This document shows, piece after piece, positions 6,373 to 55,496 of a stretch of DNA of 64,000 nt (position 1 is its first letter; the number at the start of each line of letters is the position of its first letter). The translations under genes were made by a program, and so were the position numbers. Source of the stretch: Candidatus Woykebacteria bacterium RBG_13_40_15 (GTDB lineage: Bacteria > Patescibacteriota > Microgenomatia > Woykebacterales > RBG-16-39-9b); contig MHCP01000014.1 of the NCBI GenBank assembly GCA_001816655.1, positions 27,068 through 91,067 of the forward strand. Direction: 5' to 3'. The notes under the pieces were generated by a model. The model searched no databases. It was not told the origin of the DNA and worked only from the letters and a program-made list of their open reading frames with translations.

Positions 6373-7740
6373 ATGTTGATTATGGATTTCAAAGGTAAAA
6401 AAATTGCAGTAATTGGTGCTGGTGTGGAAGGGCTTTCCTCACTAGAATTTTTTTCAAAAAAAGAAGCCTTACTATTTATATTGGACCAAAAAAACGAAAA
6501 CGAAATTAAAAGAGACAAGTTGGATAGGATAAAAGGTCTTGGCGCTAAAATAATTACCGGCAAAAATTATTTATCAAGCTTATCAGATTTCGATATTATA
6601 GTTCGATCGCCAGGGGTTAGGAGGGATTTGCCAGAAATAGTCCGCGCAGAAAAAAGAGGTGCTGTTGTAACATCACAAACTAAATTATTTTTTGATTTGT
6701 GTCCTGCAAAGATTATTGGTGTTACTGGTACGAAAGGAAAGGGAACAACATCAAGTTTAATCTATGAGATTTTAAAGCAGGCTGGGAGAGAAGTTTTCTT
6801 GGGGGGTAATATTGGAAAGCCACCTCTCGATCTTATTGATGAACTGACTAAGGAGTCCATCGTTGTTTTGGAACTTTCGAGCTTCCAACTTATTGATTTA
6901 GATAAAAGTCCCTACATTGCTGTGATCCTAATGATTACTAGCGAGCATCTTGATTGGCACAAAAGCCCTGACGAATACTTTAAAGCAAAGGAGACGATAG
7001 TAAAGTTCCAGAATGAAAATGATTCTGTAGTTATGAATGCGGATTTCGAACAGTCAAAAAAAATTGGGGATACTTCCCTCGCAAAAAAATATTATTTCTC
7101 CACAAAATCAAAAATAGGGCAAGGTGCATTTGTTGATGAGGACCAGATTGTATCAACCATTGGTAGCCTGCAGGAAGTTGTTAAGATTTCAGATATCAAA
7201 ATTCCCGGTGAGCACAATTTGCAAAATGTTGCGGCTGCGACCCTTGTAGCTGAAATTTTAAAAATTCCTGTTGATGCAATAAGATCAGCGGTTAGGTTAT
7301 ATAAAGGACTTCCGCATAGATTAGAGTTAATAGCAGAAAAAAACGGAGTTCCTTTTTACAATGATTCGGCTTCAACCAATCCGGAAACTACAATAGCTGC
7401 AATTTTGGCCTTTAAAAATCCAAAGATATTAATACTTGGAGGTTCAAGTAAGAACTCTAATTTTGATAATCTTGGAAAAGCGGCTTCCAATGAAAACGTA
7501 AAGGCAGTGATTCTGGTAGGACAAGAGGCAATAAGAATAAAACAGTCTTTGGAAAGAGCTAATTTTAAAGGACAGATCGTTGAGAATGTTGAAGAAATGC
7601 AGGGCGTTGTTGGTAAGGCTGTAAGTTTAGCCAATATGGGCGACGTTGTAATTCTTTCACCAGCGTGCGCCTCTTTTGATCAATATAAAAATTACATCGA
7701 GCGAGGGGAGAAATTCAAACAAGCTGTAAGAGAGTTATAG
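6373..7740 (+). CDS. murD: UDP-N-acetylmuramoylalanine--D-glutamate ligase
   Basis: KIAVIGAGVEG Rossmann N-terminus and GVTGTKGKGTTSS P-loop. Start moved to the ATG at 6373 to avoid overlap with mraY. Confidence 0.8.
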   Translation: MLIMDFKGKKIAVIGAGVEGLSSLEFFSKKEALLFILDQKNENEIKRDKLDRIKGLGAKIITGKNYLSSLSDFDIIVRSPGVRRDLPEIVRAEKRGAVVTSQTKLFFDLCPAKIIGVTGTKGKGTTSSLIYEILKQAGREVFLGGNIGKPPLDLIDELTKESIVVLELSSFQLIDLDKSPYIAVILMITSEHLDWHKSPDEYFKAKETIVKFQNENDSVVMNADFEQSKKIGDTSLAKKYYFSTKSKIGQGAFVDEDQIVSTIGSLQEVVKISDIKIPGEHNLQNVAAATLVAEILKIPVDAIRSAVRLYKGLPHRLELIAEKNGVPFYNDSASTNPETTIAAILAFKNPKILILGGSSKNSNFDNLGKAASNENVKAVILVGQEAIRIKQSLERANFKGQIVENVEEMQGVVGKAVSLANMGDVVILSPACASFDQYKNYIERGEKFKQAVREL

Positions 7741-7744
7741 TTTC

Positions 7745-8851
7745 ATGAAAAAAGCAATTAAACTTTCAGTTCACAAGCCAGATTTAATTCTTTTGGGAGT
7801 AGTTTTTGCTCTTTTGTTGTTTGGGCTTTTAATGATTTTTAATGCTTCTCCTGTAACCAGCCTTCGTGATTTCGGTGACAACCTTTACTTAATTCGGTGG
7901 CAGATCCTCTGGTCTATATTGGGCTTGGTAGCCGCTTCTATTGTGTTTATTTTTCCTTACACCTTTTGGCAAAAAATATCGCCTCTGATATTCATTTCTT
8001 CCCTGGTTCTACTTTGCGCAGTTTTAATTCCTGCGTTCGGCTTAAAAGTTTACGGTGCTCAAAGATGGTTGAGTTTTGGTTGGATTGGTTTTCAGCCGGC
8101 GGAATTTGCCAAACTTGCATATATTATTTATGTTTCTTCCGTCCTCGCAAGGGATATAAAAATTAAACATTTTTTGATTGTTACTGCAATTTTCGCTGGG
8201 ATCCTGCTTTATCAAAAAGACCTTGGGACAACTGTTGTTCTTGTAGCGTCGGGCCTAGCAATTTTATTTGCTTCTGGAGCAAGGCTTTTGTATTTTTTTC
8301 TTTTAGTCCCGGCCTTTGCCGCCATAGGGTCGGCTTTAGTTTTTTTCACAGATTATAGGAAAGCAAGATTTCTTTGCTTCTTAAATCCATTAGCTGATCA
8401 ACAAGGAGTTTGTTATCATATTTATCAATCGCTTCTTGCTATTGGATCTGGCGGTGTTTTCGGTCTTGGTTTAGGACAATCTAGGCAAAAATATGGTTTT
8501 ATTCCAGAGGTTGCAACCGACTCAATTTTTGATGTAATTGGAAACGAACTGGGGTTTATCGGAGCTTTGGTGTTGATTAGCACCCTTTTATTATTGATTT
8601 ACCGAGGTTTCAAAATAGCTAAAAATGCTCCTGATAAGTTTAGTTACTTGTTAGTAACAGGAATTACAACTTGGGTGGGTATTCAAGCTCTTATAAATAT
8701 AGCTGGTCTTTCGGCTCTTTTGCCTTTGGTTGGTGTACCTTTGCCCTTTATTTCCTACGGAGGAAGCTCTTTAATAGCAACTCTCCTTGCAGTAGCAATA
8801 CTTCTAAATATTTCCCGTTACACAAAACATGATTCAATTAATTTTAGGTAA
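7745..8851 (+). CDS. ftsW: SEDS-family peptidoglycan glycosyltransferase, FtsW by dcw position
   Basis: 10-TM FtsW/RodA-type protein sitting between murD and murG. Confidence 0.7.
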   Translation: MKKAIKLSVHKPDLILLGVVFALLLFGLLMIFNASPVTSLRDFGDNLYLIRWQILWSILGLVAASIVFIFPYTFWQKISPLIFISSLVLLCAVLIPAFGLKVYGAQRWLSFGWIGFQPAEFAKLAYIIYVSSVLARDIKIKHFLIVTAIFAGILLYQKDLGTTVVLVASGLAILFASGARLLYFFLLVPAFAAIGSALVFFTDYRKARFLCFLNPLADQQGVCYHIYQSLLAIGSGGVFGLGLGQSRQKYGFIPEVATDSIFDVIGNELGFIGALVLISTLLLLIYRGFKIAKNAPDKFSYLLVTGITTWVGIQALINIAGLSALLPLVGVPLPFISYGGSSLIATLLAVAILLNISRYTKHDSINFR

Positions 8852-8861
8852 GGCTTAGTAA

Positions 8862-8891
8862 TTGAACTTGTAAATGACTTTTATGTATAAT
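8862..8891 (+). promoter_or_regulatory. sigma70-like promoter (TTGAAC-18bp-TATAAT) abutting the murG ATG
   Basis: -35 at 8862-8867 and a perfect -10 at 8886-8891. The ATG at 8900 is 8 nt downstream with no SD, so the mRNA would be leaderless or near-leaderless. Confidence 0.4.
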
Positions 8892-8899
8892 CTACATTT

Positions 8900-10009
8900 A
8901 TGAAAGTAGCAATTTGTGGGGGGCATCTCACCCCGGCATTAGCAGTAATAGGGGAGCTAAAAAAACGTGGCATTAAAGATTTAATCTTCATTGGTCGCGA
9001 AAAAGCGACAGAAGGGGATAGTGCTTCAAGCGCTGAATCAGTAGTTATACCAACTCTGGACATTAAATTCTATGCTATTTCAGCAGGAAGATTGCAGAGA
9101 AAATTTACTAGGTATACGATTCCAAGCTTATTAAAAGTGCCGATTGGGTTGGCTCAAACTCTTTTAATCCTAAGTCAAGAGAAACCAAATCTTGTGATTT
9201 CTTTTGGTAGTTACGTTGCTTTTCCCGTTGTAGTTGCCGCTTGGATTTTAGGGATTCCTTCAATTACCCATGAGCAGACTGTTAAAGGCGGGTTGGCAAA
9301 CCATTTAATTGCCCGTTTCGCTAAAAAGATTGCCGTTTCGTGGCCTGATTCTTTAGAATTTTTTCCAAAAGAAAGAACAGTTCTTACTGGGAACCCAATT
9401 CGTGGAGAAATTTTGAGTATAAAGAAAAAAAGGGTAAGTCGCCCAGTCGTTTTTATAACCGGGGGGAACCAAGGCGCCCACACTCTAAATGAAATTGTCT
9501 TGGAAATAATTGAAGAATTGCTACAAAAATATGAAATTATTCACCAAACAGGCGGAGCAACAAAATTTAAGGATTTCGAAATGTTGAGCGCTAGGGTAAC
9601 GCAGCTTTCCCAGCGGCTGCAAAATCGTTATAAATTGTCAAAGTGGTTGAATAGCAACGATCTTATCGAGGTTTATTCCCGCGCTTCCTTGATTGTTGGG
9701 CGATCTGGGGCAAATACAGTTAGCGAGGCTGCTGCGGTTGGGATTCCAGCCTTATTTATCCCACTTCCTTGGGCAGGCGGTGGGGAACAGGATAGAAATG
9801 CAGAAATGTTGAAAGAGCTTGGCGCAGCCTTGATTTTACCACAAGATCGTCTTACCCCACAAAGGCTATTTGCGGCAATTAATATGATCATCAGTAATTT
9901 CGACGAATTCAAAAAATCTGCAAAAAAAGCAAAGAAATTAATTTATCCACAAGCAGCGAAAAACTTCGTCGACGAAGCTTTGAAATTAACCGACCAAAAT
10001 GCTGTTTAA
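8900..10009 (+). CDS. murG: undecaprenyldiphospho-muramoylpentapeptide beta-N-acetylglucosaminyltransferase
   Basis: N-terminus MKVAICGGHLTPALAV and GT-B fold. Confidence 0.8.
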   Translation: MKVAICGGHLTPALAVIGELKKRGIKDLIFIGREKATEGDSASSAESVVIPTLDIKFYAISAGRLQRKFTRYTIPSLLKVPIGLAQTLLILSQEKPNLVISFGSYVAFPVVVAAWILGIPSITHEQTVKGGLANHLIARFAKKIAVSWPDSLEFFPKERTVLTGNPIRGEILSIKKKRVSRPVVFITGGNQGAHTLNEIVLEIIEELLQKYEIIHQTGGATKFKDFEMLSARVTQLSQRLQNRYKLSKWLNSNDLIEVYSRASLIVGRSGANTVSEAAAVGIPALFIPLPWAGGGEQDRNAEMLKELGAALILPQDRLTPQRLFAAINMIISNFDEFKKSAKKAKKLIYPQAAKNFVDEALKLTDQNAV

Positions 10010-11850: not shown

Positions 11851-12942
11851 ATGTTAATAAAGCCAGAAGTTAACAGATTCGCAAAGATTAAAGTTATTGG
11901 AATCGGGGGTGCTGGGTGCAATGCTCTCAATTCAATGATTTCCCTTCAACAAATTCAAGGCGTTGATTTTGTGGGTGTGAATACCGATGCTCAAGCCCTT
12001 CTTTCCTGTTTAGCTCCAACAAAAATCCAAATCGGAGAACAATTAACAAAAGGATTAGGTAGTGGGGGCTTTCCTGAAATTGGTCGAAAGGCTGCCGAAG
12101 AAAGTGCAGAAAAAATGCAGGAAGTAATTAAAGATTCCGATATGGTCTTCCTGACCGCTGGTATGGGTGGTGGTACTGGAACAGGAGCTTGCCCAATAAT
12201 AGCTGAGATCGCGAAGAAAACAGGGGTTTTGACTGTCGCAGTAGTTACTAAACCATTTGCCTTTGAAGGAGCGCACAGGAGAATTGTAGCTGAAGAAGGT
12301 GTAGAAAGCTTGAAAGATAAACTTGATACCATGATCGTTATTCCAAATCAAAGGCTTCTTGATGTAGTCGACAAGAAAATGAGTTTACTCGAAGCTTTTA
12401 AAGTTGCTGATTCAGTTTTGGGCCAGGGAGTGCAAGGAATTTCGGATATTATTGTGTTGCCAGGTCTTATAAATGTTGATTTTGCCGATGTTAGAACAAT
12501 TATGACGAATGCCGGGAGTTCCTTGATGGGTATTGGGCTAGGGTCCGGTGAGGGAAGAGCCGCAGCTGCGGCTAGAGCGGCAGTTGCTTCTCCGCTTCTC
12601 GAAGTTTCCATTGAGGGGGCTAAGGGAATTTTGTTTAGTATTACTGGTGGCCCGGACCTTTCAATGTATGAGGTTGATGAAGCAGCAAAAATCATTTCAG
12701 CTGCGGCAGAAAGTGATGCAAATATAATTTTTGGGGCGGCGATTGATGAAGCAATGGTGGATCAGGTAAAGATTACAGTAATTGCGACTGGTTTCTCGGA
12801 AGATAGAGTACGCGCAGTTGAAACCAAAGAAGCCCTAGAATCTCTTCCTGAAGTGGCTACTGCGGTTGAGGGCGACGGTTCCCCCGTTTCCGATGAAGAC
12901 ACTGACCAGTTCGACATACCAGCTTTCTTACGTCAACGTTAG
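11851..12942 (+). CDS. ftsZ: cell division protein FtsZ
   Basis: IGIGGAGCNALNSM and tubulin signature GGGTGTG. Confidence 0.9.
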   Translation: MLIKPEVNRFAKIKVIGIGGAGCNALNSMISLQQIQGVDFVGVNTDAQALLSCLAPTKIQIGEQLTKGLGSGGFPEIGRKAAEESAEKMQEVIKDSDMVFLTAGMGGGTGTGACPIIAEIAKKTGVLTVAVVTKPFAFEGAHRRIVAEEGVESLKDKLDTMIVIPNQRLLDVVDKKMSLLEAFKVADSVLGQGVQGISDIIVLPGLINVDFADVRTIMTNAGSSLMGIGLGSGEGRAAAAARAAVASPLLEVSIEGAKGILFSITGGPDLSMYEVDEAAKIISAAAESDANIIFGAAIDEAMVDQVKITVIATGFSEDRVRAVETKEALESLPEVATAVEGDGSPVSDEDTDQFDIPAFLRQR

Positions 12943-13077
12943 AAAGACGGTATACTAGATGTTTCAGCATCGTCTATTCCAGCTTTTTTGAGGCGTACTA
13001 ATTGACTTACCTTTAAAACCATATTGACAGAAATATAGTCCGAAATATATAGTTACGGTGGGCCCCAAAAAGACTTT

Positions 13078-13096
13078 CCCCTTCGGGGCTTTTTTT
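13078..13096 (+). terminator. intrinsic terminator-like hairpin after ftsZ
   Basis: Stem CCCC-TTCG-GGGG followed by CTTTTTTT. It directly abuts the pyrG start. Confidence 0.5.
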
Positions 13097-13097
13097 G

Positions 13098-14726
13098 ATG
13101 GTAAACAAGGCAGGTACAAAATATATTTTTATTTCTGGTGGAGTACTATCAGGAGTTGGTAAGGGAATAACTACCGCTTCTTTAGCTTTAATTTTAAAAT
13201 CAAAAGGCTTTACGGTAAGCCCTTTTAAATGTGATCCCTACATTAACGTAGATGCTGGTACGATGAATCCGACCGAACACGGCGAGGTTTTTGTGACCGA
13301 TGATGGGGCGGAGACAGACCAAGACCTTGGTCACTACGAGCGCTTTTTGGATATTGATCTTTCTGGGGCAAACTTTACTACTACCGGGCAAATTTATCAG
13401 ACAGTTATTCAAAAAGAGAGAAATTTAGATTATAAGGGTAAGTGTGTTGAAGTTGTACCTCATATTCCTGAGGAAATTATCAGGCGGATAAAAATTGCTG
13501 GGGAAAAGAATAATGCGGATATAGTACTTGTGGAAATTGGAGGAACAGTTGGCGAGTACCAAAATATTTTATTTCTGGAAGCCGCCAGAATTCTGAAATT
13601 TCGCCAACCTCAAGATGTGATTCATATTCATGTAGGTTACTTGCCAACTCCGAATAGTTTAGGGGAGATGAAATCAAAACCGGTCCAACAGTCGGTTCGG
13701 CTTCTAAATTCAGCCGGGATTCAACCCGATATTCTGGTTTGTCGGTCAGACGAGTTTATGGACGAGAAACGCCGGGAAAAACTCGCTCTTTTTTGCAACA
13801 TGAACCAAGCTGATATTTTTCGAAATCCCGATGTCGATTCAATTTATGAAGTCCCATTAGTTTTGGAAAAACAGCAAATAGGCCAAAAGGTCCTTGAAAA
13901 ATTAAAGTTTAGAGTTGGGAAAAAAGACCTATCGGCCTGGGAGAGTTTAGTTGCTACTATTAAAAAACCAAAAAAAGAATTGCCAATTGCGGTAGTTGGC
14001 AAATATTTTACCACTGGAGACTTTTCCTTGGAAGATTCTTACATTTCAGTAATTGAAGCAATTAAACATGCTTGTTGGGCGAATGTTGTAAATTCTCGAA
14101 TTGTCTGGGTCGATAGTGAGAAAATTGAAAAGGAAGGAACGGGAGCCCTAAAAAAATTTAAAGGGGTTGTAGTTCCTGGTGGTTTTGGTAGTAGAGGGGT
14201 TGAGGGGATTATTAAAGCGATTCAATTCGCCAGAGAAAATAAAGTGCCTTACTTGGGCCTTTGTTTTGGTATGCAGCTTGCAACAGTTGAGTTTGCAAGA
14301 AATGTAGCAGAGTTGAAAGACGCTAATACTACCGAAATAAATAGTGACGCGTACAACAAAGTAATTCATGTAATGCCGGAACAAGAAAAGTTATTAATTG
14401 GTAAGGAGTATGGTGGTACTATGCGGCTAGGAGCCTTTCCTTGTAAACTAGTTAATGGGACTACTGCACAGAAAGCGTATGGTCGCAATGAAATTTATGA
14501 GAGGCACCGTCATCGATATGAATTTAATAGTCAATTTAGAGATAAACTAGAAAAGTCAGGCTTTATTGTTTCAGGTACAAGTTTGAATGGCCGTCTTGTA
14601 GAGATAATTGAGATAAAAGGGCACCCTTTCTTTGTCGGGACACAATTTCATCCCGAATTTAAATCTAGACCACTCAGGCCTCACCCACTATTTTCAGCCT
14701 TTATTAAAAAAAGCTGTCTAGCATAA
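13098..14726 (+). CDS. pyrG: CTP synthase
   Basis: N-terminus KYIFISGGVLSGVGKGITTASLA. C-terminal glutamine amidotransferase domain GLCFGMQ. Confidence 0.9.
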   Translation: MVNKAGTKYIFISGGVLSGVGKGITTASLALILKSKGFTVSPFKCDPYINVDAGTMNPTEHGEVFVTDDGAETDQDLGHYERFLDIDLSGANFTTTGQIYQTVIQKERNLDYKGKCVEVVPHIPEEIIRRIKIAGEKNNADIVLVEIGGTVGEYQNILFLEAARILKFRQPQDVIHIHVGYLPTPNSLGEMKSKPVQQSVRLLNSAGIQPDILVCRSDEFMDEKRREKLALFCNMNQADIFRNPDVDSIYEVPLVLEKQQIGQKVLEKLKFRVGKKDLSAWESLVATIKKPKKELPIAVVGKYFTTGDFSLEDSYISVIEAIKHACWANVVNSRIVWVDSEKIEKEGTGALKKFKGVVVPGGFGSRGVEGIIKAIQFARENKVPYLGLCFGMQLATVEFARNVAELKDANTTEINSDAYNKVIHVMPEQEKLLIGKEYGGTMRLGAFPCKLVNGTTAQKAYGRNEIYERHRHRYEFNSQFRDKLEKSGFIVSGTSLNGRLVEIIEIKGHPFFVGTQFHPEFKSRPLRPHPLFSAFIKKSCLA

Positions 14727-14728
14727 AA

Positions 14729-14760
14729 GAACTCCCCGTGGAGGGCAACACAGGGAGTTC
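14729..14760 (-). terminator. hairpin (GAACTCCC...GGGAGTTC) with a T-run on the minus strand, probable terminator of the MerR-like gene, possibly bidirectional
   Basis: 8-bp stem. An A-run precedes it on plus, giving a T-run on minus. Confidence 0.4.
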
Positions 14761-14890
14761 GAGGTATGAATTATAGCTTATTATTACAATACTTGTAAGT
14801 GATTAACTTACAAAATTGCACAATAGTATTATCAGAAATACGTTGGAGCGTCAACAATCAAGCATTAATTTGATCTATAAAGAAAGCGGT

Positions 14891-15202
14891 TTAGATTATA
14901 TTGAATTCGTCGAAATCGGGGAAAATTTTTTTCTGCAAATCTACGCCATTTTTTCCAGCCAACTCGATCAACTTTAAAATTGAAGCCACTCCTGCAAGAT
15001 TTATTCCCTTCTTATTGGTTAGGTGCCTAATAAATTGCAGTTTTCGGATATCCTTTTGTGAAAATCTTCTTCGGTTTGTTTTAGTCCGCGCTGGGATAAC
15101 TAATCCTTCGTTTTCATAAATCATAAGAGTCCTGGGGTGAACTCCCATTATTTCGGCCGTGACAGAAAGTGTGAATAAGGGTTTGGTATCTGCTGATGTC
15201 AT
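14891..15202 (-). CDS. MerR-family transcriptional regulator (HspR-like)
   Basis: HTH region FTLSVTAEIMGVHPRTLMIYENEGLV. 103 aa. Confidence 0.7.
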   Translation of the reverse strand: MTSADTKPLFTLSVTAEIMGVHPRTLMIYENEGLVIPARTKTNRRRFSQKDIRKLQFIRHLTNKKGINLAGVASILKLIELAGKNGVDLQKKIFPDFDEFNII

Positions 15203-15508
15203 AGGAAAATACTACGATATAATATACTAATAAAATATCAATATGCAAGTGTTATTTTAGCGTAGTGAAAACCGTTTTCTTATCGGAACGGTTGAAGAAG
15301 CTAAAAGAAACTTCTTCCGATTTCGGAAGCCGAAGGTTTTAGCCCGCGGAGCTTCATTTTTGGGCTAGGTAGTAGGTTGGCTGTTGCATTTTTATGCGGA
15401 TCGGTATATTTTTTAATTAGTTAAATATTTGTTGTGTGTAGCCCGTTTTAATGTTTTAGACGGGCGTATTTTGGAACGGGCTTTGAGGGCAACACATAAC
15501 AGGGAAAA

Positions 15509-15536
15509 CCCCGGCAACTTCCGGGGTTTTCTTTTT
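15509..15536 (+). terminator. intrinsic terminator (CCCCGG-caactt-CCGGGG-TTTTCTTTTT) with no upstream protein gene on plus
   Basis: Perfect 6-bp GC stem followed by a T-run. The only upstream plus-strand sequence is a 300-nt ORF-less structured region. Confidence 0.5.
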
Positions 15537-15682
15537 ACCAATTGACCCCTTGACAAATAGTTAGACTTTTTATTACAGTAATGTTGTAAGGTTTTATGAT
15601 AGTAAGACTTTAGTATTAAGCAGGTTTTAAATGCAAGAGTCAGTTTAGAACAATCTTGAAGGGAGGTGAAAATAACAAGACT

Positions 15683-15940
15683 ATGACAATGAGTACCGAA
15701 GAAGCTGGGAGGAGAGGAGGCTTGATGGTAAAAAAGAAATATGGTCCCTCTTTTTACTCTGAGATCGGCCGAAAAGGTGGTCAAGCAACCAAAAAGGCAT
15801 ACGGCCCAGACTTTTATTCGAAGATCGGGGAAAAAGGTGGCGAGATGGTAAAGGAAAAGCATGGCCCCTCGTTTTACTCAGAGATTGGTAAGAAAGGTGG
15901 AAGAATGCGAGCGAACAAGCAAATGAAGTTTGAGTTTTAG
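15683..15940 (+). CDS. KGG-repeat general stress protein (YciG/Con-10-like)
   Basis: Three tandem ~20-aa repeats: YGPSFYSEIGRKGGQ, YGPDFYSKIGEKGGE, HGPSFYSEIGKKGGR. GGGAGGTG RBS. Start placed at the ATG at 15683. Confidence 0.7.
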   Translation: MTMSTEEAGRRGGLMVKKKYGPSFYSEIGRKGGQATKKAYGPDFYSKIGEKGGEMVKEKHGPSFYSEIGKKGGRMRANKQMKFEF

Positions 15941-16055
15941 CTTGGCGATTATGCCCTTAGTGGTCAAGCTAACCCCCGATCATTTCGGGGGAGGAATTAT
16001 CCGTAGTAAAAGCCGCTTGTCTAATTAGCCGTTTTTTGGTTTAATTTACTTCACG

Positions 16056-19010
16056 ATGTTTAAAAAGGTTAGTTCCAAAGTTGATTTTCCGCAACTAGAG
16101 CGTGAAACTCTTAAATATTGGCAAAAAAATAAGATTTTAGAAAAATATCTCGCCAGAAATAAAGATTCCAAAGAAAAGTTCAAGTTTCTCGACGGTCCAA
16201 TTACAGCCAACAATCCAATGGGAGTGCATCATGCTTGGGGAAGGACTTACAAAGATTTGTGGCAACGTTTTTTCAATATGTTGGGCAAACGCCAGCGTTT
16301 TCAAAACGGTTTCGATGAGCAAGGGCTTTGGGTTGAGGTTGAAGTCGAAAAGGACCTTGGATTAAAAACAAAAAAAGACATTGAAAATCTAGTTCCTGGA
16401 AACACCTTTGAATCAATTGCCAAGTTCGTCAATCTTTGTAAGGAAAGAGTTAAAAAGTATTCTGCAGTTCAAGCAGAACAGAGTAAGCGTCTGGGTTATT
16501 TCATGGATTGGGAAAATTCATACCACACAAGTTCCGATCAAAATAATTACGCAATTTGGAATTATCTAAAAACAGTTCACGAAAAAGGCTGGCTTTACAA
16601 AGGGAGAGACACCGTGCCTTGGTGCCCGCGCTGTGGTACCGCCATTTCTCAACACGAGATTTTGACTGAAGAATATCAAGAAATCACCCATAAAGCAGTT
16701 TACGTGCGATATCCTATTATTGGTAAAAAGAATACCTACTTACTTGTTTGGACCACGACTCCTTGGACTCTTCCAGGTAATGTTTCGACTGCTGTTAATC
16801 CTGAACTAAAATATGTAGAAATTGATTGGGTTGTGGGAGCTCCAATCGGGGTTCCAATGGGTAACTACATAGTTTCAGATAACCTCTCAGAACGTATTTT
16901 CAAGGATTTGGACAAGGAAGAAGTAATTCGAACTTTTTCTGGGAAAGAATTAATCGGATTAGAGTATGCGACCCCCTTCGATGATCTTGAAAGAGTTAAA
17001 AATGCAAAAAAAGAAGGAAATTTCCATAAAGTAATCGCTTCCAAAGATTTGGTGACAGCGGAAGAAGGTACCGGTTTGGTTCATATTGCACCGGGGCAGG
17101 GGGAGGAAGATTTTAAACTTGGAAGGGAACAAGATATTCCTACAATTGAATTGATCGATGAAGGGGCTAACTATATAAACGGGTTGGGTGAATTTTCTGG
17201 AAAAAACGCCAAAGACCATCCTGAATTAATCCTTGATTATCTCGAAAAATATGAGAATGGTAAATTTTTCTTTAAAGTCGAGGATTATAAACACCGCTAT
17301 CCAACTTGTTGGCGGTGCAAGACAGAGCTTGTTTGGCGAGTGGTTGATGAGTGGTATATTGCGATGGATAAACCATCGAAGTCAAAAGTAAAAAGTCAAA
17401 ATTCAAAAGTTGAGAAAAAGACTTATCGGGAAATGATGAAAGAAGTTATTAAAGATGTTAAATGGATTCCCTCTTGGGGCTACGAGCGAGAGTTAGACTG
17501 GCTCAACAATATGCACGATTGGCTAATTTCTAAGAAACGATATTGGGGCCTTGCGTTGCCAATTTGGGAGTGTAATAAGTGCGGTAATTTTGAGCTTGTT
17601 GGCTCAAAAGAGGAGTTAAATGAAAAAGCAGTTAGCGGTTGGAAAGAATTTGAAGGCAACTCTCCTCATAGACCTTGGATAGATCAAGTAAAAATAAAGT
17701 GTTCGAAATGTGGGGAAGTGGTATCTAGGATTCCAGATGTTGGAAACCCGTGGCTTGATGCCGGAATTGTTCCATTCTCAACTCTAAATTATTTCGAGGA
17801 CAAAGATTATTGGAGAAAGTGGTTTCCAGCAGATTTTATAACCGAAGCTTTCCCAGGCCAATTTAAAAATTGGTTTTACTCGCTGATTGCAATGTCAACA
17901 GCCCTTGAAGCTACAACCCCATTCAAAACACTTTTAGGTCATGGTCAAGTGAAGGATGAAAAGGGAGAGGAGATGCACAAAAGTAAAGGAAATGCAATTG
18001 AGTTCAATGAATCAGCAGATAAAATAGGGGTTGATGTAATGAGGTGGTTATATCTTAGAACCAAACCTGAACATAATGTTAATTTTGGTTATCACGTTGC
18101 CGAAGAGATAAAGCGCTTATTCTTGTTAAGACTTTGGAATGTTTACGTATTCTTCGTTACTTACGCAAATATTGATGAATGGAATCCGACTAACAAAAAA
18201 TTTAAGCCCACGAATGTTCTTGATAGATGGGTATTTTCCAGAATGAAAGGAAATATTGAGCACGTAACTGAGGCTTTAAATGGTCTTGGGGAGAAGAAAA
18301 GGTTCGATGCAGCAGACGCCATTGGAAACGCCGAAATTTTCGTAGACGACTTATCAAATTGGTATGTGAGGAGAATAAGAGACAGAGTGGGTCCTAACGT
18401 GCCTGATGGAGAAGATAAAAAGGATGCTTATGAAACTCTTTGGGTTGTGCTGAAAAGCTACTCAAAAACCCTTGCTCCAATGGTTCCATTTATTTCGGAG
18501 GAGATATACACAAATTTAACCGGAGAATTATCCGTCCATCTAGTTAATTGGCCTTCAGGTGATGAGTTTTTTAAAGACACAAAACTAGAGGAAGAGATGA
18601 ATTTGGCAAGGGAGATTGTTGAGGCAGCCCACTCTAAACGCAAAGAAAAAGCCATCAAGGTACGTCAACCATTGGCTCTTCTTACCTACCCGAAACAAAA
18701 ACTAGATACAGAAGTGGAAAAGGTAATCGCCGCTGAGGTCAATGTGAAAGAAGTAAGATTTGATCCTAAACAAAAAGAGGGTGTAAGACTTGATGATAGA
18801 ATTACTGAAGAATTAAAAGAAGAAGGAGAAGCAAGAGACTTAATACGGGCTGTTCAGGAAAAACGAAAAGAAGCTAGTGTTGAGTTTAGCGATGAAGTCA
18901 CGGTTTATGCCCCGCTACCAAGTAGAAAAGATCTGGTGGATTTAGTTAAGAAAGAAACATTGGCAAAGAAGCTTATTCAATCTAACGAAATAAAAGTAGA
19001 AAAAGATTAA
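16056..19010 (+). CDS. ileS: isoleucine--tRNA ligase
   Basis: HIGH motif (GVHHAWG), KMSKS-like MHKSKGN, Zn-binding CPRCGT and CSKCG. 984 aa. Confidence 0.9.
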   Translation: MFKKVSSKVDFPQLERETLKYWQKNKILEKYLARNKDSKEKFKFLDGPITANNPMGVHHAWGRTYKDLWQRFFNMLGKRQRFQNGFDEQGLWVEVEVEKDLGLKTKKDIENLVPGNTFESIAKFVNLCKERVKKYSAVQAEQSKRLGYFMDWENSYHTSSDQNNYAIWNYLKTVHEKGWLYKGRDTVPWCPRCGTAISQHEILTEEYQEITHKAVYVRYPIIGKKNTYLLVWTTTPWTLPGNVSTAVNPELKYVEIDWVVGAPIGVPMGNYIVSDNLSERIFKDLDKEEVIRTFSGKELIGLEYATPFDDLERVKNAKKEGNFHKVIASKDLVTAEEGTGLVHIAPGQGEEDFKLGREQDIPTIELIDEGANYINGLGEFSGKNAKDHPELILDYLEKYENGKFFFKVEDYKHRYPTCWRCKTELVWRVVDEWYIAMDKPSKSKVKSQNSKVEKKTYREMMKEVIKDVKWIPSWGYERELDWLNNMHDWLISKKRYWGLALPIWECNKCGNFELVGSKEELNEKAVSGWKEFEGNSPHRPWIDQVKIKCSKCGEVVSRIPDVGNPWLDAGIVPFSTLNYFEDKDYWRKWFPADFITEAFPGQFKNWFYSLIAMSTALEATTPFKTLLGHGQVKDEKGEEMHKSKGNAIEFNESADKIGVDVMRWLYLRTKPEHNVNFGYHVAEEIKRLFLLRLWNVYVFFVTYANIDEWNPTNKKFKPTNVLDRWVFSRMKGNIEHVTEALNGLGEKKRFDAADAIGNAEIFVDDLSNWYVRRIRDRVGPNVPDGEDKKDAYETLWVVLKSYSKTLAPMVPFISEEIYTNLTGELSVHLVNWPSGDEFFKDTKLEEEMNLAREIVEAAHSKRKEKAIKVRQPLALLTYPKQKLDTEVEKVIAAEVNVKEVRFDPKQKEGVRLDDRITEELKEEGEARDLIRAVQEKRKEASVEFSDEVTVYAPLPSRKDLVDLVKKETLAKKLIQSNEIKVEKD

Positions 19011-25911: not shown

Positions 25912-26373
25912 TTAAATGTCTCCGGGGTCGAAAGTTCCAAACTCCACGTGTGTTAAGGCTTCTTTTAACAAGTCAATCGATGGAGCATGATATTCCCGAG
26001 GAGTGAGATCTACCTCCCCCATTCTCAAATGATTAGACATCCCAGAAAGTTGTGATATATCGCTTCTAAAATCACCTGCTTTAGCGTCCAGATCTTCTAC
26101 ATCATCATCCCACTTACTGAAGGCAAAATCTGGCTGTTCTTCGTTGGTCAGCGTTTCTCTAAGAACTCGAAAAACTCCTGGCTCTTTCTCTACAACATCC
26201 ATTTGGTATGGGCCTTTTTCTCGAGAAGCAGATTCTTCCACGCGCGGAATATCTAATGTCATTGGTTTTACTTCGCTTTCCCTAGCTTCAGCCTCTTCTT
26301 GAGATTCTATTTCCTGGGCTTCTGATTCACCCATTGAAGGGATTTCACCGTCCATAAATTTAGAATAACACAA
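25912..26373 (-). CDS. acidic hypothetical protein
   Basis: 153-aa ORF rich in Glu/Asp with no recognisable domain. Confidence 0.3.
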   Translation of the reverse strand: MCYSKFMDGEIPSMGESEAQEIESQEEAEARESEVKPMTLDIPRVEESASREKGPYQMDVVEKEPGVFRVLRETLTNEEQPDFAFSKWDDDVEDLDAKAGDFRSDISQLSGMSNHLRMGEVDLTPREYHAPSIDLLKEALTHVEFGTFDPGDI

Positions 26374-26403
26374 AATTTTTATAAGTCAAAAAAGCTGGAG
26401 CGG

Positions 26404-27430: not shown

Positions 27431-27506
27431 GGGTCCGTGGTGTAGCGGTTAACATGCCTCTCTGTCGAAGAGGAGATCGCCGGTTCGAATCCGGTCGGAC
27501 CCGCCA
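27431..27506 (+). tRNA. tRNA-Asp (anticodon GTC)
   Basis: GGGTCCGTGGTGTAGCGGTTAACATGCCTCTCTGTCGAAGAGG...GGTTCGAATCCGGTCGGACCCGCCA. Confidence 0.85.
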
Positions 27507-27645
27507 CTTTTTCCAATTCTCAATTCTTAGTTATTACGTTGACATCTCATAGTTTGTTTTTTATACTAGCGACAAGCAACTAGGTTGAAAGTATAGAGAA
27601 TCATAAAAGCACCCACCATTTTCATATTCCAAGGAGGAAAAAGAG

Positions 27646-28461
27646 ATGTCAGAACTAACACTTCCTTTCACAAGGGACAGGCTTGGCACGCGGGAGATGT
27701 GCGAGCTAATTCTCCACTCAGGGCAGGTGGCTCTTCGCGACATCAATGCGGGAGAGCTTCCATTTGAGTACAGCGCTAACAAGGCTACTCTGGTTCCAGG
27801 GCCCCACGGGCCGATCCTTGAAGGGACTCCCCGTTTTGGTCCTGGCTACATTCTCATCAAGGCGCTTGTCAGCCAGGAACACACATTCTTCAGCCTGATC
27901 AATCAGCTCGCTCTCCGAGTGGTTGACGCCCGTGTGCGGTTGGACGGAATCTGCGGAAATGTCTCGGGAGGGATGATTCCAGGATTCGTCCTAAAGCTCT
28001 ACCTCTCACATCTCTACGGTGGCCCCGTCTACTACTTCTACGCTAGGGAGATGCGAAAAGAGCACGGTTCCCGAGAGATGTTGGTAGGGGTGGACAACAC
28101 ACCCTTCATAAAGGAGGGCATGAACTTCGGGGACGTCGAGGAGCTGGTCAACAATGCCCAGACAACCTGTAACGCCGCTCTCACTCTCAGGGCGTCAGGT
28201 TTCAGGTGCACGCATGCGATTACCATTCTAGATTACGCCAACTCGGCGGCGAAGATTCAAAGGGAGGCGATTAATCTGACACAGATAAGTCTGGTAACAC
28301 TTCCCGAGCTTTTGGCTTACGCAAGGGATGTGGGGAAGTGGCCAGGCCCCGTCATCGACGATTATCTTTCCTACCTCGAAAGTCCTGACGATTGGGCGGC
28401 GAGGAATCAGGAGGCGATCATCAGGACACTTCAGCAAAAAGAGGAGGAGCATCATGGTTAG
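27646..28461 (+). CDS. orotate phosphoribosyltransferase-like (type I PRTase fold) protein with a non-canonical PRPP loop
   Basis: High-GC ORF with AAGGAGG RBS. Block order ICGNVSGGMIPG, YFYAREMRKEHGSREMLVG and GDVEELVNNAQTTCNAALTLRASGFRCTHAITILDY parallels PyrE. The hhhhDDxxTGGT loop is replaced. Confidence 0.5.
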   Translation: MSELTLPFTRDRLGTREMCELILHSGQVALRDINAGELPFEYSANKATLVPGPHGPILEGTPRFGPGYILIKALVSQEHTFFSLINQLALRVVDARVRLDGICGNVSGGMIPGFVLKLYLSHLYGGPVYYFYAREMRKEHGSREMLVGVDNTPFIKEGMNFGDVEELVNNAQTTCNAALTLRASGFRCTHAITILDYANSAAKIQREAINLTQISLVTLPELLAYARDVGKWPGPVIDDYLSYLESPDDWAARNQEAIIRTLQQKEEEHHG

Positions 28462-29182
28462 GTTCAACGTCGATCTCAGTAGACCTATTCTCTGCCTCGC
28501 TCTTGATGAAGGCTCGCTTGAGGGCAACCTGAAGCTAGCTGAGCAGGCGGCAGGCGAAGTCGATATGCTGAAGATCAACGATGACTCCGTGGACGACGCG
28601 GGACTTAGAGCCTGTGTTGAGCCTTTCCTTCAGTTCAGGCTCCCATTTTGGGTCGACATGAAGATGCTCAAGGGCGCAAGAACCATGGGGGAAAGGGCTA
28701 CATCCGCTGCCAAGCTTGGCGCCTCATTCATCAACGCCTACGCTCTGGCTGAAAGGCTTCTCAAGGGTCCTGTTGATGCTCTTGTCGGGACTGAAACAGG
28801 CCTTTTGGGACTAACTGTCCCAACCCATTTTGGAGAGGCCTACTGTCAGCTGGTGTTCCGGCGATCGCTGCCGGACTCAGTCCGCTTTCTCTCCGAGATC
28901 GCAATGGTTCAAAGCCTCGACGGATTGATTCTTCCTCCGACAACGCTTTCCGCAGTCGAGGACATCGATACCATCAAAGCGACCCCTGCCATCAGATCAG
29001 ATTGGTCCGAGAAGAAGGCGAATGACCAAGAGTCGTCGGCAACGCCGGCGGAAGCGGTCCTCGGTGGATCGAAGATCCTGATCGTCGGCAGCCCAATCCG
29101 CAAATACCCTGATGGTCCGGCGGCAGGGGCACGGAGGATCAAGGAGGAGATGCTTGAAGCCTTTGAGCGAAGAGGCGCTTGA
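28454..29182 (+). CDS. orotidine-5'-phosphate decarboxylase-like protein (PyrF family, divergent active site)
   Basis: PILCLALD, LKIN, WVDMKMLK (where PyrF has DxKxxD), LLGLTV, TPAIR..ANDQ..TP, ILIVGSPI all collinear with PyrF. 8-nt overlap with the upstream gene. High GC. Confidence 0.6.
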   Translation: MVRFNVDLSRPILCLALDEGSLEGNLKLAEQAAGEVDMLKINDDSVDDAGLRACVEPFLQFRLPFWVDMKMLKGARTMGERATSAAKLGASFINAYALAERLLKGPVDALVGTETGLLGLTVPTHFGEAYCQLVFRRSLPDSVRFLSEIAMVQSLDGLILPPTTLSAVEDIDTIKATPAIRSDWSEKKANDQESSATPAEAVLGGSKILIVGSPIRKYPDGPAAGARRIKEEMLEAFERRGA

Positions 29183-29702
29183 GCTCCTTACCGAGCAACT
29201 GCCTTTGGCTTTGTCCTTTGCCATCACCGCCCACTCGGAATCTCCTAGGAGACCGGACAAAGCACTGCGGAGGCACGACGGCAGAACGCCTTACTACGTG
29301 CACCCTCTTTGGGGCGCAATGACTGTCCTCCAAGAGCCAAACTTGCCCTTTCAAGTGAGAATCCTTGGCGCGCATGTTCTTGCGTTCCACGACGTTCTGG
29401 AAGATACTACAGCGGAGCTTCCCGACTGGGTGCGTCCGCTTGTGAAGGAAGGCGTTGAGCAGATGACCTTCACAGACTTCGCGGAGGAGAGGCGATTGGT
29501 TTGGGGAAAGCCTGAGTGGATCTGGCTCCTCAAGCTGTACGACAAGGTCAGTAATCTCCTCGATGGATGGCCATGGATGCGTACCAAGGGTGAGGAGTAC
29601 ACTACTGCCTATAAAGCCTTCACTCTGGAACTAGCTAGAAGAGTGCGTGAGCACTTCGGCGAACTCCAGATCCTTAAGATTGCAGAAGCAATTTGCAAGT
29701 GA
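29112..29702 (+). CDS. Mesh1/SpoT-type HD-domain (p)ppGpp hydrolase-like protein (small alarmone hydrolase)
   Basis: AHSESPRRPDKALRRHDGRTPYYVHPL, AFHDVLEDT and KLYDKVSNL match the RelA/SpoT hydrolase signatures (H..R.SGEPYI.HPL, HDvvEDT, KLaDRlhN). Exact start uncertain. High GC. Confidence 0.6.
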   Translation: MVRRQGHGGSRRRCLKPLSEEALELLTEQLPLALSFAITAHSESPRRPDKALRRHDGRTPYYVHPLWGAMTVLQEPNLPFQVRILGAHVLAFHDVLEDTTAELPDWVRPLVKEGVEQMTFTDFAEERRLVWGKPEWIWLLKLYDKVSNLLDGWPWMRTKGEEYTTAYKAFTLELARRVREHFGELQILKIAEAICK

Positions 29703-29726
29703 AGGAATCGGAAGATCGAGGGAGGA

Positions 29727-29772
29727 GCCCCGCTCTGTTGCAGAGATGCAGTAGTAGCGGGGCTTTTCGTTT
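29727..29772 (+). terminator. intrinsic terminator closing the high-GC cassette
   Basis: GCCCCGCT...AGCGGGGC 8-bp stem followed by TTTTCGTTT. Confidence 0.6.
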
Positions 29773-29801
29773 GGGAAAAAATCAGGTAAAATTTTCTAGA
29801 A

Positions 29802-54682: not shown

Positions 54683-55240
54683 CTAGCAGGAAATGGTGGG
54701 TGCTAATCGTAGTTTTCTCCCAACCCATTCAGCAAGTAGCGCGATTATCAGGCTGTGAGAAGTGCGGTGACGGCGGTCCGCATCTTCGGCCAGGACGTTA
54801 AGCACAAGGTGATCTGTATGCTCCTGCGTCCACTCTTCTCCTTTTCCAACACGAACCCGTCTCATGAGACTGAAGGCTGTGTCGAAATACTCGCCATGAC
54901 CGACATAGTACGTGCTTGTGAACCACCATCCTACGCGAGTCCATATCCGGCGCCAGCTGGGTGCTATCGTATCGCAGATCACATCGACAGTGACCAGTTC
55001 ACCCTTGAACAGGTGGTAAACGACGTAGACCGCTTTCCCATCAAAGGTTGTGTACATGGACTTTATCTGGTGATGGCAATCATGAAGCCATTCTTGGGCA
55101 GCGTATAGGATGTTGTTCACAAGCTTGGTTGTAACCACCACGTTTGGGAGTATTACCAAGAATATCCAGCGCGGCCAGTTGTGCCATGTGAAAGCATACG
55201 GACTATTGACCCTATTATCTATCATCTTAATGATGCTCAT
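54683..55240 (-). CDS. high-GC membrane-associated putative metal-dependent hydrolase (YdjM/DUF457-like?)
   Basis: His-rich motifs (HDCHH, HGEYFDT, HTDH) with hydrophobic segments. GC clearly above flanks. Confidence 0.3.
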   Translation of the reverse strand: MSIIKMIDNRVNSPYAFTWHNWPRWIFLVILPNVVVTTKLVNNILYAAQEWLHDCHHQIKSMYTTFDGKAVYVVYHLFKGELVTVDVICDTIAPSWRRIWTRVGWWFTSTYYVGHGEYFDTAFSLMRRVRVGKGEEWTQEHTDHLVLNVLAEDADRRHRTSHSLIIALLAEWVGRKLRLAPTISC

Positions 55241-55496
55241 GATATCTCTATCCTTTCAACCTTTGGTTAGGATTACGCTTATTGTATGGGTGCGAACACA
55301 CTGGCCGATATAATACCTAACTGCTAGGCAGAAAGTCAAATCATATCGGTCTGTAGGTTAATGGTGGTGGGTGTGGTTTTCCTGTGGGGACTGGCTCATC
55401 ATTTGTAGCATATCTGATTAATTTATGTCTATTGACAAACTCGGGTTTTAATATTATTCTGATAACAGATACCCCCTCCTGGGGTGGAGGTATAAG

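Follow-up and report, generated by a model that had tools for sequence, protein, structure and literature searches.

Divergent orotate phosphoribosyltransferase-like and OMP decarboxylase-family proteins with a MESH1-type hydrolase in a conserved gene module of CPR bacteria and DPANN archaea

Synthesis of uridine monophosphate (UMP) ends with two steps, from orotate to orotidine monophosphate (OMP) and from OMP to UMP, which are catalyzed by orotate phosphoribosyltransferase (OPRTase, PyrE) and OMP decarboxylase (OMPDC, PyrF), respectively. OMPDC serves as a textbook example of how proficient a catalyst can be, and the Lys-Asp-Lys-Asp tetrad (DxKxxD) of the enzyme is treated as universal. MESH1 is a hydrolase of the alarmone ppGpp (guanosine tetraphosphate), an NADPH 2′-phosphatase and a 3′-phosphatase of 3′-phosphoadenosine 5′-phosphosulfate (PAPS) (PMC12934728). 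Here we describe three overlapping genes, g1, g2 and g3, that encode divergent relatives of these three enzymes in a 64,000-nucleotide stretch of DNA from Candidatus Woykebacteria bacterium RBG_13_40_15 (the window, to which all positions given without a locus number refer). With a probability slightly below 60 % we read them as the version of the last two UMP-synthesis steps in DPANN archaea and in bacteria of the candidate phyla radiation (CPR), to which the source organism belongs, complemented by an accessory phosphohydrolase. This estimate applies jointly to g1 as a very divergent OPRTase of the subtype represented by the Burkholderia enzyme 4ohc, and to the trio as one operon made up of a promoter, a 5′ untranslated region (UTR), three translationally coupled genes and a terminator.

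Operon structure and encoded proteins

All three genes are located on the plus strand. Gene g1 (27646-28461, 271 aa, ribosome-binding site AAGGAGG) is predicted to encode a divergent OPRTase-like type I phosphoribosyltransferase (PRTase), g2 (28454-29182, 242 aa, most likely start ATG 28454) an OMPDC-family protein with remodelled active site and g3 (29154-29702, 182 aa from TTG 29154) an HD phosphohydrolase of the MESH1/small alarmone hydrolase (SAH) type. The first and the third are 99-100 % identical to A2172_00425 and A2172_00435 of Candidatus Woykebacteria bacterium RBG_13_40_15. Between g1 and g2 the overlap is 8 nt. Between g2 and g3 it amounts to 29 nt if g3 starts at TTG 29154, which sits 5 nt past AAGGAGGAG and was taken as the most likely start, or to 71 nt if the in-frame ATG 29112 is used.

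A sigma-70-type promoter (TTGACA-17-TATACT, 27539-27567, plus strand) matches 11 of 12 positions in a consensus scan and leaves a 5′ UTR of about 78 nt in front of g1. Downstream of g3, an intrinsic-terminator-like hairpin with U-rich tail extends over 29722-29777 (plus strand). Its stem of about 20 bp (29722-29768) is followed by UUUUCGUUU, and comparison of RNA folding with shuffled sequences gave −38.9 kcal/mol with z = −6.2, an equally good fold being obtained in none of 200 shuffles. A simple terminator scanner missed the hairpin, probably since its rule asks for five or more T among the 8 bases past the stem. A riboswitch for PRPP (phosphoribosyl pyrophosphate), ppGpp or a similar ligand in the 5′ UTR was considered and rejected, as a permissive Rfam scan returned the tRNA and chance-level matches only. 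This tRNA-Asp(GTC) (27431-27506, plus strand; ARAGORN, Rfam tRNA model 65.9 bits) ends 139 nt upstream of the g1 start; it is a conserved upstream neighbor for which we do not claim operon membership. Both promoter hexamers and the greater part of the spacer (CTCATAGTTT) do not vary among seven aligned relatives. The spacer CTCATAGTTTnTTTC was also seen to be near-invariant in the loci L001, L003, L006, L008, L010 and L031 though the coding regions differ by 35 %, which suggests an operator or another regulatory site.

The first-pass annotation of this DNA had reported three overlapping GC-rich genes between tRNA-Asp and a strong terminator, and reading frames, composition and hairpin bear this out. 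The motifs it quoted (NFGDVEELVNNAQTT, DMKMLK, R..G.PYYVHPL, HDVLEDT and KLYDKVSNL) are all present. Its fold assignments, i.e., an OPRTase-like protein, an OMPDC-like protein whose DxKxxD reads DxKxxK and an HD hydrolase of Mesh1/SpoT type, were reproduced with profiles and, for g1 and g3, with AlphaFold2 (AF2) models.

The g1 protein escapes the usual family models. No Pfam match was obtained at E ≤ 1, PF00156 included, the scores lie below the NCBIfam PyrE cutoffs (NF001729, 34.6 bits against 245; TIGR00336, 29.2 against 106.8), and NCBI annotates the gene as hypothetical. When a family profile built from 18 database homologues was compared with the PDB, the five chains that scored below E 1e-5 were without exception OPRTases, with 4ohc as best match (E 6.7e-12) and the OPRT domain of human UMPS at E 2.5e-9. 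The AF2 model (pLDDT 90.1) led to the same family, with OPRTases occupying Foldseek PDB ranks 1-38 (4ohc: E 2.7e-16, target-normalised TM-score 0.78-0.82). Model and profile agree on a type I PRTase fold with the hood and dimer architecture specific to OPRTases.

Invariant motifs of the g1 family are GPGY..K, GNVSGGMxP, YxRxxRKxxG and EELVNxAxTTCN. In an hhalign alignment with E. coli PyrE (reference sequence 100 % identical to 1oro), R134, K138, H140 and G141 correspond to R99, K103, H105 and G106, and the catalytic-loop residues R134, K138 and G141 are invariant in the 18 sequences. The likewise invariant acidic pair E165 E166 aligns with the ED/DD of 4ohc and of the human and E. coli enzymes according to HMMER; hhalign had put G162-D163 opposite E. 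coli D124-D125, and the HMMER alignments to closer OPRTases were preferred. The 5-phosphate loop has the sequence NNAQT in place of TAGTA, so that both the Gly and the leading Thr are missing, and is strictly conserved within the family. At the position of the orotate-contacting Arg156 of E. coli a Tyr is found, as in the Burkholderia enzyme 4ohc. The PRPP loop had initially been described as replaced. The altered sequence is confirmed, but the invariance of E165 E166, R134 and K138 and the signature EELVNxAxTTCN speak for a conserved variant that is modified rather than lost. Because g1 is invisible to the Pfam and NCBI PyrE models, metabolic reconstructions of CPR and DPANN organisms may score the OPRTase step as missing, which would add to the impression that pyrimidine synthesis is beyond them. 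Many proteins of the family show PRTase domains duplicated in tandem or nested within each other. In DPANN archaea and some bacteria, g1-type PRTases of 360-480 aa occur with a second, degenerate PRTase domain nested or in tandem before (L027 5926-7218, L028 2850-4298, L029 1005-2171 and L108 5998-7152; proteins P0152-P0172).

Membership of g2 in the OMPDC family is evident from Pfam PF00215 (OMPdecase; E 5.8e-21, 75.9 bits against a cutoff of 27, 218 of 221 profile positions covered). The NCBIfam PyrF cutoffs are not reached (NF001273, 71.1 bits against 193; TIGR01740, 56.2 against 92.3). OMPDCs come first when the family profile is compared with the PDB (1dbt E 5.5e-22, lowest E 2.8e-22); one hexulose-6-phosphate synthase follows far down the list (E 4e-4). 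The roles of individual OMPDC residues used in the following are those of published enzymology. In the alignment with B. subtilis OMPDC (1dbt), D11, K33, D60 and K62 are retained, the last three as K40, D68 and K70 of g2, and the Gln of the DQ motif is kept as well. Substituted are D65 by Lys73, the Ser of LTS by His125 and Arg215 of the GR motif by Ser213. The protein therefore contains neither the complete Lys-Asp-Lys-Asp tetrad nor the Ser/Arg pair that grips the substrate.

These exchanges are not confined to the window. In 73 family members from related loci the D65 position is occupied by Asn (60), Lys (8), His (2) or one each of Gly, Phe and Gln, and in no case by Asp; the canonical PyrF encoded in L001 shows Asp there in the same alignment. 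His replaces the LTS Ser in 68 of 74 rows and Ser the gripper Arg in 60 of 74. Further conserved residues are specific to the family, namely Asn42, Asp44, His125, Tyr130, Cys131 and Arg137. Whether or not it still decarboxylates OMP, a whole clade in which nature has dispensed with the second Asp, the base-binding Ser and the gripper Arg offers a ready-made experiment on the OMPDC mechanism.

For g3 no Pfam model was matched, any HD model included, and TIGR00691 reached E 0.1 only. Its family profile found human MESH1 (3nr1, E 7.4e-11), Drosophila Mesh1, Rel hydrolase domains and SAHs in the PDB. With the AF2 model (pLDDT 95.6) the top 16 Foldseek matches were Mesh1, MESH1, RelH and PaSAH (TM-score about 0.67-0.72), followed by Rel/SpoT hydrolase domains, and other HD families appeared at E > 0.4. 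R39, H50, H79, D80, E83, D84, D130 and N134 are invariant or nearly so among 29 homologues and align with MESH1 residues. Judged by these alignments, g3 is a MESH1/SAH-type HD hydrolase with intact catalytic residues; presumably it is metal-dependent like its homologues. A JGI protein of 309 aa, P0149, has a g3-type HD domain fused to a NUDIX hydrolase domain, which makes it the second instance in which this HD family is found joined to an enzyme of nucleotide pyrophosphates.

Distribution, composition and history of the module

Pattern scans with the g1 alignment yielded 19 related loci in reference genomes and 79 in metagenomes. They were examined with up to 10 kb of flank per side. Their open reading frames (ORFs) were searched with hidden Markov models of the g1, g2 and g3 alignments, and neighbors were clustered. 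The counts below refer to 90 non-redundant loci; loci and proteins are numbered L and P. Named hosts include Woesebacteria, Saccharibacteria, Berkelbacteria, Falkowbacteria, Aenigmatarchaeota and Nanoarchaeota. Two metagenome-assembled genomes with a related locus are binned otherwise, as Gammaproteobacteria and Bacteroidetes, while all other named loci are labelled as CPR or DPANN; the metagenome loci carry no organism label. Gene g1 occurs in 83 of the 90 loci and is directly followed by g2 in 72. The g1 family is small: an exhaustive profile search of 1.84 billion representatives gave 74 clusters at E ≤ 1e-30.

Dihydroorotate dehydrogenase (pyrD) adjoins the g1-g2 pair in eight independent loci, archaeal ones included, and a probable dihydroorotase lies beside it in L016 and L028. 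After g2, the most frequent partner of g1 is g3, with at least 18 of the 90 loci. It is found in four arrangements (g1-g2-g3, g3-g1-g2, divergent from g1 and convergent after g2) in bacteria and archaea, and in L056 the order is pyrD-g3-g1-g2. Where at least 1.5 kb is available on both sides (34 loci), g3 stands beside the pair in nine cases and a gene of the inositol monophosphatase (IMPase) family in two. Of three g3 homologue loci sampled independently of g1, one (L113) adjoins a g1-g2 pair. In some Saccharibacteria the slot of g3 is occupied by an IMPase-family phosphatase (PF00459, E 5e-42; L013 7400-8218, L014 4131-4922, L016 7412-8209 and L080 5060-5911), whose gene either stands immediately before g1 or shares about 15 nt with the end of g2. 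The IMPase family includes CysQ-type phosphatases of adenosine 3′,5′-bisphosphate (pAp) and PAPS as well as an archaeal NADP phosphatase.

Gene fusions connect the same families. Eight proteins are g1-g2 fusions (P0161, P0164, P0174, P0177, P0185, P0186, P0190 and P0265) and three have the reverse order, g2-g1 (P0173, P0187 and P0196). In P0191 a canonical-type OMPDC is fused to a g1-like domain, and P0153 is a g3-g1 fusion. Judged by these homologies and gene orders, the trio is part of a conserved module shared among tiny symbionts, bacterial as well as archaeal. No description of the module was found in a literature search combining OPRTase with CPR, SAH with Patescibacteria and Mesh1 with orotate, which gave nothing relevant; ppGpp with OPRTase and SAH with PRTase returned general stringent-response papers only. 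In L053 the GyrB gene beside the g1-g2 locus (7648-9840) contains an intein (PF14890).

The trio stands out by its composition. Its GC content is 0.549 compared to 0.398 for the rest of the window, and GC at third codon positions (GC3) is 0.61-0.63 compared to 0.33-0.34 in the flanking PolX and LemA genes, in line with the foreign composition noted at first pass. Outside the trio, GC3 is above 0.5 in just three ORFs of the 64 kb, all on the minus strand: a PlsC-type acyltransferase gene (PF01553, 41153-42121, GC3 0.53) and two ORFs that have no Pfam match and may not be genes (2221-2631, 0.58; 54686-55255, 0.57). All Woykebacteria-like relatives share the excess, with a GC content of 0.49-0.58 (surroundings 0.39-0.46) and a GC3 of up to 0.72, and in several other CPR lineages (L020, L022, L023 and L072) the trio or pair exceeds its surroundings by 15 to 21 GC points. 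An amino-acid effect was rejected as explanation, the excess being largest at third codon positions, and so was a family-wide property, the pair being of native composition in L014, L016, L027, L028, L060, L067 and L080.

In relatives with 35-66 % g1 identity the trio is found at the same position wherever synteny is shared. The common order is Big-domain protein, tRNA-Thr, tRNA-Gly, LysM protein, tRNA-Asp, g1-g2-g3, PolX and LemA. Common and syntenic as the trio is in relatives, it encodes non-canonical enzymes and an HD protein of the suggested relationship, and its GC content is not native. The tRNA-Asp lies just upstream of the trio in eight of nine related loci scanned, the ninth, L011, being without tRNAs. 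As in the window, tRNA-Asp(GTC) has plus orientation in L001 (7787-7862), L006 (4010-4085) and L008 (2203-2278); minus orientation is found in L003 (50-125), L007 (7681-7756), L010 (5400-5475), L017 (5726-5801) and L031 (5735-5810). This flip, seen in about half of the relatives, appears to take along a promoter-like TAAACT box of its own, and no flanking inverted repeats were seen around the flipped tRNA-Asp. Between tRNA-Thr and tRNA-Gly of the window a 153-aa acidic ORF without Pfam match was noticed (25912-26373, minus strand). It has no counterpart in the closest relative L006, the alignment leaving about 25950-26400 uncovered.

Sequence identities of neighboring genes do not run in parallel. 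The PolX of the window shares 85 % identity with its counterparts in L006 and L032, but g1 reaches only 61-63 % and g2 only 60-62 % in comparison with the same two loci. The g2 of the window is 74-76 % identical to those of L003 and L031, whose PolX reaches only 64-66 %. Simple vertical descent with fast evolution was thus rejected for g2, as it groups with L003/L031 and not with the PolX sisters L006/L032. The g3 alleles form groups about 40 % identical to each other, that of the window being 40 % identical to the allele of L003 and 68-72 % to that of L006. In L017, a g1 of a different subtype (35 % identity) occupies the same position. This locus (CAYIWY010000003.1) is labelled 'uncultured Gammaproteobacteria', and it shows Woykebacteria-type synteny (tRNA-Thr/Gly/Asp, trio, PolX, LemA, M48) and a GC content of 0.38; it is probably mis-binned or mis-labelled.

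The pattern fits a horizontal transfer of the trio into the Woykebacteria lineage, its retention at the tRNA-Asp/PolX position and later exchange of individual genes. Acquisition and exchange leave the undecayed GC3 unaccounted for. An excess of 25-35 points persists in the cassette though neighboring genes of the relatives are saturated at synonymous sites. One relative, L001 (a 271-kb contig), combines the trio with a complete canonical pyr operon 3 kb downstream. This operon directly follows LemA (12773-16783; pyrF, a gene for a SLOG/LDcluster4 protein, pyrE, pyrD, pyrK and pyrC) and is compositionally odd itself, with GC3 of 0.31-0.38 against 0.43-0.58 in its flanks. Other relatives lack a canonical pyr operon there and have an M48 peptidase gene at that position.

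Proposed function and alternatives

From folds, conserved residues, operon structure, neighborhood linkage and fusions we infer the substrates of the three proteins. With orotate and PRPP, g1 would form OMP and pyrophosphate. Decarboxylation of OMP to UMP would be the task of g2, in a remodelled active site that keeps the Asp/Lys/Asp-x-Lys core, has Lys or Asn in place of the inter-subunit Asp and contains the family residues His125, Tyr130, Cys131 and Arg137. The third protein would serve the PRTase step as a 2′/3′-(pyro)phosphate hydrolase, in keeping with the MESH1 family, whose members cleave phosphate or pyrophosphate off the ribose 2′ or 3′ position of nucleotides such as ppGpp, NADPH and PAPS. 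Most likely g3 would destroy a PRPP-mimicking 3′-(pyro)phosphorylated nucleotide that would otherwise inhibit g1; less likely it would trim a phosphorylated intermediate of the pathway. PRPP and ppGpp resemble each other to the extent that a riboswitch can be changed from one ligand to the other by a single point mutation (PMC6031431).

Fusions of UMP-synthase type, pyrD linkage and the OPRTase and OMPDC folds make conversion of orotate to UMP the most economical assignment for g1 and g2. They favor the option of an orotate-to-UMP pair with a nucleotide pyrophosphatase that had been put forward in the first-pass annotation. Adjacency of g3 irrespective of gene order, the g3-g1 fusion and the IMPase-family gene in the same slot together suggest a 2′/3′ hydrolase associated with the PRTase step. 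That a MESH1-type hydrolase is recurrently linked with a PRTase, and in one case fused to it, points to an unrecognized connection of 2′/3′-(pyro)phosphorylated nucleotides with PRPP-dependent synthesis. A CTP synthase is encoded in the window, so the cell needs a supply of UMP/UTP, and tblastn with pyrF, pyrE, pyrD and pyrK of L001 detected none of these canonical genes in the 64 kb.

Several observations weigh against this assignment. In g1 the NNAQT loop and the Tyr in place of Arg156 leave room for a different substrate. In g2 the second Asp of DxKxxD, the pyrimidine-contacting Ser and the phosphate-gripper Arg are missing, and loss of the second Asp alone is reportedly very damaging to OMPDC in mutagenesis. 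L031 and L032 do without g3, which is therefore dispensable in some lineages. The canonical pyr operon of L001 implies that the trio is not needed there for the canonical reactions. Finally, we know of no role of a MESH1-type hydrolase in UMP synthesis, and none was found in the searchable literature.

A new pathway, in which g1 and g2 handle an altered base or a differently phosphorylated ribosyl unit (e.g., a 2′-/3′-(pyro)phosphate) and g3 or the IMPase-family enzyme of Saccharibacteria removes the extra group as last step, appears rather unlikely to us. Residues contacting ribose and phosphate are indeed changed in both proteins (NNAQT in g1; Lys, Asn or His for the second Asp, which we take to be the 2′-OH-binding residue of OMPDC, and Ser for the gripper Arg in g2), and base contacts are changed too (Ser to His in g2, Arg156 to Tyr in g1). 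Two unrelated phosphohydrolase families, both known for nucleotide 2′/3′-phosphatase activity, stand beside the pair, a g3-g1 fusion exists, and L001 possesses canonical pyr genes in addition. Dihydroorotate dehydrogenase and probable dihydroorotase next to the pair in several lineages point to orotate, however. P0191 joins a g1-like domain to a canonical-type OMPDC, the Tyr for Arg156 is common to the solved Burkholderia OPRTase, and about three quarters of the loci with enough flank show no adjacent phosphohydrolase. To our knowledge there is no natural PRPP analogue phosphorylated at the 2′ or 3′ position. Intermediates with an extra phosphate would explain the remodelled contacts, the loss of the second Asp and the repeated linkage of MESH1- or IMPase-type hydrolases together; that the module makes pyrimidine or other nucleotides via ribosyl intermediates with an additional 2′/3′-(pyro)phosphate or an altered 5′ group nevertheless seems unlikely.

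The coupling of g3 to the pair can be disputed as well. An ordinary housekeeping alarmone or NADPH/pAp phosphatase that merely shares the transcript would be in accordance with the larger size of its family (at least 116 matches against 18 for g1 in the same database), its frequent location elsewhere in the genome (L109, L111) and its absence from L031 and L032. We consider this distinctly unlikely, since the adjacency recurs in four gene orders in bacteria and archaea and again in one of three independently sampled g3 loci. A g3-g1 fusion protein exists, the foreign GC3 of the trio extends to g3, and its alleles were swapped while the position was kept. Hardly credible is a toxin-antitoxin or anti-phage module on a tRNA-linked islet, with a nucleotide-modifying toxin pair neutralized by the small alarmone hydrolase, as the first-pass annotation had proposed in analogy to toxic small alarmone synthetase (toxSAS)-SAH pairs. 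SAHs do act as antidotes to toxSAS enzymes, composition and tRNA neighborhood suit an islet, and g1, g2 and g3 differ in history from the flanking PolX. No alarmone synthetase of RelA/SpoT type was found in the window or beside the module, though, the neighbors being OPRTase and OMPDC families. PADLOC and PHROGs scans of all three proteins were empty, and the pair is linked to pyrD and fused in the manner of UMP synthase. Nor does a recent islet agree with the tRNA-Asp-adjacent position kept in the recovered relatives with the same synteny, even where g1 identity is as low as 35-48 %; no integrase ORF lies in 27507-29800, and no att-like or tRNA-derived direct repeat was found.

Comparison with known systems

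Compared to a tRNA-linked genomic island, the locus agrees in composition, but has no integrase, direct repeat or variable presence, and compared to a toxSAS-SAH module it lacks the small alarmone synthetase toxin next to the hydrolase. With the MESH1/SAH enzymes (human HDDC3, Drosophila Mesh1, C. glutamicum RelH and P. aeruginosa SAH), g3 agrees in size and in the all-helical HD fold made up of a single domain, and it has every residue for metal binding and catalysis (Arg, His, His-Asp, Glu-Asp, Asp and Asn). It differs in an identity of about 20 %, in belonging to a family widespread in Patescibacteria and DPANN and in genomic ties to an OPRTase/OMPDC-like pair instead of alarmone synthetases.

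The closest relatives of g1 are the PyrE enzymes of the approximately 230-aa alpha/beta-proteobacterial subtype (NF001729; Burkholderia cenocepacia 4ohc/9e5g). Common features are the type I PRTase fold with OPRTase hood and C-terminal helical extension, the acidic pair of the PRPP motif, Arg and Lys of the catalytic loop and, with 4ohc, the Tyr replacing Arg156 of E. coli; the gene likewise adjoins or fuses with an OMPDC-family gene and occurs near pyrD. In contrast, identity to the closest solved OPRTase is about 17 %, PF00156 is not matched and scores are far below the NCBIfam cutoffs. The loop reads N-N-A-Q-T-T-C-N instead of T-A/T-G-T/S-A/S, and GNVSGGMxP and GPGY..K are invariant motifs of its own.

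Bacterial-type PyrF (PF00215, B. subtilis 1dbt) and g2 are collinear TIM-barrel proteins of the OMPDC family along their full length. They share the equivalents of Asp11, Lys33, Asp60 and Lys62, a Thr four residues past the lost Asp and the motifs TPGIR and DQ..ATP. The differences concern the second Asp of DxKxxD, which is absent and replaced by Lys in the window, the exchange of the LTS Ser for His and of the GR phosphate-gripper Arg for Ser, and the newly conserved Asn42, Asp44, Tyr130, Cys131 and Arg137. As in UMP synthase, where the order is OPRTase-OMPDC in eukaryotes and OMPDC-OPRTase in kinetoplastids (e.g., Leishmania 3qw4), the g1 and g2 families are fused in both orders. Unlike UMP synthase, the genes in the window are separate but overlapping, the g1-g2 and g2-g1 fusions carry divergent-type domains in both halves, and a third partner, the HD hydrolase, is linked to the pair and once fused to g1.

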